Shown here in pieces: positions 45,400 to 46,045 of a stretch of 64,000 bases of DNA (its first letter is position 1; every line of letters starts with the position of its first letter). The position numbers and the translations under genes are program-made. Origin of the DNA: Heterodontus francisci (lineage: Eukaryota); contig NC_090380.1 in assembly GCF_036365525.1 (NCBI RefSeq), positions 82,531,658 to 82,595,657 of the forward strand, in the 5' to 3' direction. Under the pieces are notes generated by a model that searched no databases, was not told the origin of the DNA, and was given only the letters and a program-made list of their open reading frames with translations.

Positions 45400-46045
45400 C
45401 CGCAAGCAGGACCCTGAGCTTCCGGTTGCTTGCCATTTCAACACTCCCCCCTGCTCTCATCTCTGTCCTGGGATTGCTGCAGTGTTCCAGTGAACATCAA
45501 CGCAAGCTCGAGGAACACATCTCATCTACCGATTAGGCACACTACAGCCAGCCGGACTGAACATTGAGTTCAATAATTTCAGAGCATGACAGCCCCCCAT
45601 TTTACTTTCATTTTTAGTTATTTTTTCTTCCTTTTTTTTTTACATTCTTTTTTACATTTTTTACAATCTTTTTTTGCATTTATTTCATTTCATCCTAGTT
45701 TGTTCAGTTTGCTTACCCACTGTTTTTTTCAGGTTTGCACTTGCTGCTGTTCAATATTCAGTGTATTCACACCTAATCTGTACTAATGCTTTGTCTTTCA
45801 ACACACCATTAACATATTGTTTGCCTTTGCTCCGTGACCTTTTGGTCAGCTATGTGGCCTGGTCCAATCTGCACCTTCTCCTTTGTTATCTCTTGCCCCA
45901 CCCCCACCTCACTTGTTTATAATCTGTGACTTTTCTAATATTTGTCAGTTCCGAAAAAGGGTCACTGACCCGAAACGTTAACTCTGCTTCTCTTTCCACA
46001 GATGCTGCCAGACCTGCTGAGTGATTCCAGCATTTCTTGTTTTTG
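45400..46045 (+). mobile_element. Penelope-like retroelement 3' fragment (copy C): GIY-YIG C-terminus, 3' region and hammerhead-like motif
   Basis: Frameshifted RKQDPELPVACHFN..ISVLGLLQC...RKLEE.HLIYRLGTLQPAGLNIEFNNFRA*; TSD ttacctt at 45393-45399 and 46046-46052. Confidence 0.85.

Follow-up and report, generated by a model that had tools for sequence, protein, structure and literature searches.

The 64-kb stretch of Heterodontus francisci DNA analysed here, hereafter called the window, contains a 5'-truncated Penelope-like element (PLE), copy C, whose end repeat bears a minimal hammerhead motif of type I (Table 1). When all lines of evidence are joined, it is probable that this hammerhead is decayed and the copy inert, and that in the parent element the RNA likely begins with the motif, which there would cut only slowly, in dimeric form and with help from protein, and is likely dispensable for insertion. 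Minimal hammerheads (min-HHRs) in the pLTRs of metazoan PLEs were described by Cervera and De la Pena (2014; PMC4209133), with PLE hammerheads known from fishes, coelacanth, lamprey, frog and reptiles, and the present case extends this known PLE feature to a shark family. The part of their table that was compared holds no shark row, and the searchable text of the supplement gave no match to shark terms. A literature search that covered only a minority of the subscription journals returned no paper describing shark PLE hammerheads. Non-LTR retrozymes with PLE-derived type I hammerheads have been reported from one chondrichthyan genome (Li et al., 2026, bioRxiv 10.64898/2026.07.22.740005), and this PLE family may already be listed in the supplements of that work. 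The role of PLE hammerheads is still regarded as open in print (PMC8557442; PMC11167929).

Table 1. Features of copy C, its surroundings and the other copies in the window.
Feature	Position	Strand	Basis or remark
Copy C, EN+ Penelope-like insertion, 5'-truncated, 646 bp	45400..46045	+	flanking 7-bp duplication
Left target-site duplication TTACCTT	45393..45399	+	
Right target-site duplication TTACCTT	46046..46052	+	
GIY-YIG endonuclease C-terminus, ~60 codons, frameshifted, stop at end	45401..45589	+	tblastn of ray PLE proteins
Minimal type I hammerhead motif of copy C, 37 bases	45947..45983	+	descriptor and published consensus
Stem I of copy C	5' 45947-50, 3' 45980-83	+	
Core of copy C; extra A	45951-57; 45958	+	
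Stem II of copy C	45959-63 with 45967-71	+	
GAAA; CGTT of copy C	45972-75; 45976-79	+	
Competing helix, predicted	45944-49 with 45964-69 (45944..45969)	+	blocks stems I and II with upstream sequence
BBX intron with copies C and D	41406..55806, limits approximate	-	tblastn of BBX P0013
Copy A, head-to-head stub pair	21562..21757	both	13-bp duplication
Copy B, older head-to-head stub pair	37985..38185, ends approximate	both	
Copy D, head-to-head end-repeat stubs joined inside hammerhead core	54931..55151	both	15-bp duplication at 54916 and 55152
Copy E, single tailed stub without nearly all of motif	62855..62958	-	
Copy F motif, other subfamily, decayed	63543..63579	-	G8A, G16.2A, stem II mismatch

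The insertion and its host gene

Copy C consists of an endonuclease tail, a 3' untranslated part and the end repeat, and its flanks rejoin at the exact spacing that is found in a CR1-like copy without an interruption (39773-39389). The endonuclease tail contains two frameshifts and, relative to other copies, two small deletions. A direct protein search with the frameshifted fragment gave no match, the Atlas gave no usable match, and Pfam assigned no family to the three window fragments of the tail. A search with the last endonuclease fragment returned four proteins, three of which were set aside as unrelated repeat proteins; the only relevant one, P0004, led to six ray proteins, of which four (P0005-P0008) match 45401-45583 with E values of 1e-10 to 2e-8 (tblastn against the window). 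Three of the six carry reverse transcriptase (RT) residues together with a zinc-finger linker and a weak match to PF01541; P0005, P0007 and P0008 match this family at E 5e-4 to 2e-3, below the Pfam cut-off, and the relatives P0007 and P0008 have the linker (CX4CxxC). The hammerhead motif lies ~360 nt past the endonuclease stop and ~60 nt short of the 3' end of the insertion, which is the place of a PLE end repeat. Judged from its sequence, copy C is a PLE, what is left of its protein corresponding to the GIY-YIG tail in Neptune-type PLE proteins of rays, and the link between the repeat and a GIY-YIG C-terminus, made in the preliminary description of this DNA, is real, though the reading frame is broken.

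The Neptune/Nematis-type clade can be assumed for copy C from its relatives, which are 45-49% identical to its tail in three matches of ~60 residues each, RT and linker being absent from the window. With the EN+ PLEs of this type (Craig et al., 2021; PMC8557442) the family has in common the C-terminal GIY-YIG domain, inverted truncated copies and a tail at one end, and the closest proteins share with them RT, the CX2-5CxxC linker and CCHH; the difference is that the clade is reached for copy C via its relatives only. Poseidon, unlike the closest relatives of the copy C element, has no zinc-finger linker, copy C itself being known from sequence alone. Four of the ray records (P0004, P0005, P0009 and P0010) join PLE endonuclease tails to VKOR-family, DIPK1C, ABHD14A and ULK1 proteins, and these fusions to host genes would represent either exonisation or annotation artefacts.

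The host gene is BBX, an HMG-box gene. A minus-strand frame of 816 nt corresponds to shark BBX proteins at 86-96% identity, and tblastn of the shark protein P0013 against the window mapped ten segments of the gene to the minus strand (62239 to 26003); these are coding exons and cover the protein from residue ~136 to its end. Copies B, C, D, E and F are situated within the mapped BBX introns or just upstream of them; the ribozyme strand of copy C is antisense to BBX, and the motif of copy F is sense. Most of the remaining long frames with a Pfam match are pieces of CR1-like LINEs. A nearly complete one at 31436-35178 (minus strand) comprises an esterase-type ORF1 piece, a 632-residue endonuclease/RT frame and a 369-residue RT frame, and decayed copies similar to it are present at ~12.2-16.1 kb and ~51.8-55.7 kb. 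An RBMX-like frame at 5743-6216 on the minus strand (E 4.9e-30 against a solved RBMX RRM) has a small deletion and loses its similarity after ~77 residues, and is probably a processed pseudogene.

Motif anatomy and the family core

The motif starts at 45947 and not at 45946 as first given, the quoted letters being correct. Its assignment to the minimal type I hammerheads of Penelope-like end repeats was right. The published consensus for metazoan PLE motifs comprises a short helix I, CUGANGAH, a G-C-closed helix II, GAAAN, an optional palindrome and NUH (PMC4209133), and copy C fits it, including the extra base after A9, the pair G10.1-C11.1 and the palindrome at 15.2-16.2, except for two changes in the core, U4C (45952) and G8A (45956). 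At the family level the extra base between 9 and 10.1, a helix I of 3-5 bp and a helix II of 4-8 bp are all present. Like the min-HHRs of Cervera and De la Pena, the motif is of type I without helix III, lies in the end repeat and occurs mostly as single or opposite-strand copies, and the CGUU ending of copy C is found in many rows of their table; unlike them, copy C combines U4C with G8A, and U4C is present in none of the table rows compared. A cut in copy C is predicted to fall after 45979. The palindrome noted earlier exists, but it is ACGU (15.1-16.1) instead of AACGUU, as the longer form takes in A14 and N17, which in standard hammerhead numbering are core positions and lie outside the helix III palindrome. 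ACGU is present in C and in four of the six other aligned arms, and is changed in F and in the left arm of B. Across the seven aligned arms 35 of 37 stem cells pair, and stem I is invariant in both arms that hold it. Stem covariation, named in the preliminary description as a check, does not beat shuffles within the window: only pair 10.1-11.1 varies on both sides (G-C twice, A-U twice, G-U once), and 163 of 500 shuffles reach this single compensatory pair.

A minimal-hammerhead descriptor applied to both strands of the 64 kb found no perfect core, in agreement with the earlier statement that no single copy has one, and gave two hits, with one core mismatch in F and two in C, compared with a mean of 0.05 in 20 Markov controls. 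The 3' 17-mer of the motif has five matches at up to three mismatches, where 0.09 are expected. It is therefore highly improbable, and largely refuted, that the match arose by chance or that the hairpin copies are a DNA-transposon (MITE) family unrelated to PLEs. Such an origin would agree with the lack of a hammerhead among the 20 Rfam matches of the window (cmscan, E up to 10), with the folding z-scores of all five stretches (-0.97 to +0.14) and with the fact that A, B and D are long inverted repeats; however, the motif is physically continuous with the GIY-YIG tail, the two arms of a pair are unlike, one having a PLE-type tail, and the lengths of the duplications vary. Matches to miRNA models at 21.56-21.72 kb and 38.0-38.2 kb do not reach the gathering scores of these models and stem only from the hairpins A and B.

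The family consensus proposed earlier was built from copies C, D and F and mixes subfamilies. Since C and F are identical at 228 of 345 positions (66%), they belong to different subfamilies, and the U/A alternative at position 7 is a difference between these. The letters quoted from D exist (55026-55057), but their CGATGA overlaps the 12-nt palindromic centre of the inversion at 55021-55032 and is an artefact of this junction. As the alignment of the right arm of D to C begins only at the equivalent of 45957 (89/91 identical), this arm is uninformative on the 5' core, and the evidence usable at D is the previously neglected left arm, which aligns to C from 45953 (91/95 identical) and reads TGAAGAA on the minus strand. 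The quotation from F could be located, though its elided part hides a C-A mismatch closing stem II.

Evidence on the family comes from public sequencing runs. Four of 24 listed runs, from three coded organisms and all consisting of contigs (for two of the four an RNA origin is a guess), were aligned to 45371-46060 at 85% likeness, with 64211, 5266, 6693 and 2162 records aligned. G makes up 99.4, 99.4, 99.7 and 99.8% of the contig depth at 45956, and G8 is thus near-fixed and G8A private to copy C. A sister subfamily, seen in loose-end groups of 38, 49 and 34 contigs, has an intact CUGAUGA core and A-U at 10.1-11.1. The CUGANGA core suggested for the family is borne out in these two respects, but U4, which is seen in the sister subfamily (consensus of the groups of 38 and 49 contigs), is not established for the subfamily of copy C. 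There, C is probably the majority base at 45952, a view to which we lean because a near-fixed T at such depth should rank among the best-supported rows: no C>T is present at this position among the best 40 of 44 variant rows, the remaining four including two C>T by tally. The left arm of D has T at the equivalent position, which CpG decay could explain. Six loci from five collection scans for flanking motifs (0, 0, 3, 0 and 3) match the window over 22-39 nt only and were treated as chance; the three for which letters were available (L001-L003) have no further likeness to it. Shares of the searched words are also contained in a soil metagenome and three RNA runs, on which no conclusion is based.

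It is rather unlikely that the motif in the copy C subfamily is dead or nearly so by fixation of U4C, kept as a 5' hairpin, promoter or protein-binding element and amplified regardless. That 45952 has no C>T among the best 40 rows, while G at 45956 stands at 99%, speaks for this, as do the reports that U4C "considerably decreases activity in vitro" (PMC3088659) and that Naiad PLEs thrive without canonical hammerheads (PMC8557442). However, 45952 may be one of the two C>T rows among the other four, the T in D points the other way unless it is due to CpG decay, and a viroid variant with U4C stays active enough in vivo (PMC3088659).

Truncated copies and the insertion template

BLAST within the window revealed eight further arms in five places. 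Target-site duplications of 7, 13 and 15 bp are present in three of the five insertions examined, and at copy B no exact flanking duplication of at least 6 bp was found. Two classes of 3' ends occur, since each of the three hairpins (A, B and D) has one short arm that ends where C ends and one that is ~40 nt longer. The 5' ends cluster in the motif: all seven truncated arms start inside it, at the equivalents of 45953, 45957, 45957, 45960, 45967, 45981 and 45981. Five of these starts lie upstream of the predicted cut, and the respective arms therefore contain sequence from both sides of it. The other two, the left arm of A (21631, minus strand) and E (62958, minus strand), start one base past the predicted cut. 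In E a motif-like hexamer is present 3 nt upstream of the start, and this copy may be an internal deletion; a footprint of the cut site was left unproven from two of seven arms, with E being ambiguous. In the four runs summed depth, which is not to be read as copy number, increases 5.6- to 32.7-fold across the motif, and it is therefore likely that short stubs dominate the family. In run X5, ten contigs start at 45947, and their flanks are unrelated.

A similar arrangement is known from PAc, the Poseidon element of the lizard Anolis carolinensis (Frangieh et al., 2024; PMC11167929), which likewise has its hammerhead in the pLTR, two classes of 3' ends separated by a 30-40 nt tail, and AT-rich insertion sites. 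There, the PLE tail was explained by a pair of internal sites at which the RT starts, cleavage by the hammerhead required added protein, catalytic mutants had no effect on insertion in vitro, and RNA-seq ends were reported to be absent from the cut site. In our favoured reading, PLE transcription would start at or next to stem I, and the RT of the element would start internally at two sites ~40 nt apart, which is suggested by the tail of ~40 nt on one arm of all three hairpins, as in PAc. The RT would then copy back to the uncut 5' end and thereby generate short stubs, two stubs primed from opposite target strands would give rise to the hairpins A, B and D, and C and F would be copies reaching further upstream, into the 3' end of the next unit. 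If the motif is cleaved at all, this would occur slowly, in a dimer and with the aid of protein, because the published minimal motifs cut poorly even as dimers (PMC4209133) and because of the data on the lizard element; for the same reasons it was overstated in the preliminary description that such motifs work as dimers. Position 4 may be C in the subfamily of copy C, and catalysis would then be even weaker or lost. The model for the mechanism is a lizard element of the Poseidon clade, while copy C looks Neptune-type and the window contains no RT, and the starts of A left and E are at the place that a cleaved template would also give, which counts against an uncut template.

Cervera and De la Pena proposed, and the preliminary description implied, that the ribozyme, acting as an efficient dimer, processes tandem PLE transcripts to templates of unit length that are perhaps circular. 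The core is indeed kept across subfamilies that are only 66% identical, with near-fixed G8 and the full CUGAUGA in the sister subfamily, and two of the seven arms start one base beyond the predicted cut. Nevertheless, we consider this unlikely, as five of seven arms span the cut site, no tandem copies are present in the 64-kb window, the dimer fold is disfavoured in silico, the published dimers show low activity (PMC4209133), insertion of PAc in vitro is indifferent to catalytic mutations (PMC11167929), and one of the two supporting starts is the ambiguous one of E. An origin as retrozymes was rejected, since these form head-to-tail tandem arrays with a hammerhead in each unit (Li et al., 2026), whereas the copies in the window are dispersed or head-to-head.

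Folding at the RNA start and in the hairpin copies

The motif of copy C does not fold unusually well (z -0.92). With the natural upstream flank, stem II forms with a predicted probability of 0.09-0.25 and a competing helix would block stems I and II, while for an RNA starting at 45945-45947 the probability of stem II is 0.90-1.0 and that of stem I ~0.5-0.8. Among 200 random flanks 6 blocked the stem equally, and among 200 shuffled ones 11; the block by the natural flank stays when G8 is restored, but of three upstream starts only the longest retains it with U4. The sequence 45945..45951 (+) is an initiator-like hexa/heptamer that would have the first base of stem I as its +1 A. Initiator-like matches are found in both C and F, but they are frequent, with 24 per kb for a loose and 3.6 per kb for a strict form of the consensus.

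It is conceivable, though doubtful, that a very abundant PLE subfamily common to several sharks fixed U4C, and that this C together with the three bases upstream of stem I shuts the motif in read-through RNA and opens it when the RNA starts at stem I. In such a position-gated switch the ribozyme could fold only at the 5' end of the transcript and would be silent when located in a host intron or in the 3' repeat. The gate was read post hoc from predicted folds, and covariation lends it no support. A possible U4C core and this fold at the 5' end are the only fresh leads of the analysis; if either were true, a highly amplified subfamily with fixed U4C or a fold that opens only at the 5' end would be a natural test of the role of cleavage in PLE mobility.

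Two copies of the C motif can legally form a double hammerhead with 22 standard pairs and -13.7 kcal/mol, but both two separate monomers (-15.8 kcal/mol) and a mispaired duplex (-24.8 kcal/mol) are predicted to be more stable. Copy F does not fold as a hammerhead. Self-cleavage of copy C is not expected, since it is predicted to be inert due to its two core changes, its occluded fold and its position antisense to BBX. Copy D folds as one hairpin with 97 pairs and -181.5 kcal/mol, and A and B are predicted to form comparable long duplexes of 76 and 71 pairs, so the hairpin copies would fold their own motifs away. An effect on the host gene BBX is therefore not likely, copy C being mutated at two core positions and antisense. 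D lies ~650 nt from one BBX exon and B close to another, so the duplexes could be substrates for editing or dicing in the pre-mRNA.

In copy C the motif lies between two splice-acceptor-like sites. The first, at 45935-45948, has a branch-like pentamer, pyrimidines and an AG that ends in stem I, an arrangement comparable to that of the Drosophila virilis Penelope intron, whose acceptor also ends in stem I (PMC4209133). The second, at 45990-46004, has a pyrimidine tract and a CAG directly before the ATG at 46002. Among the joints listed from the four contig runs there was none matching either site. Finally, C (45956) and F (63570), the two copies with a whole motif, share G8A despite the near-fixed G8 in the runs, two cases only.
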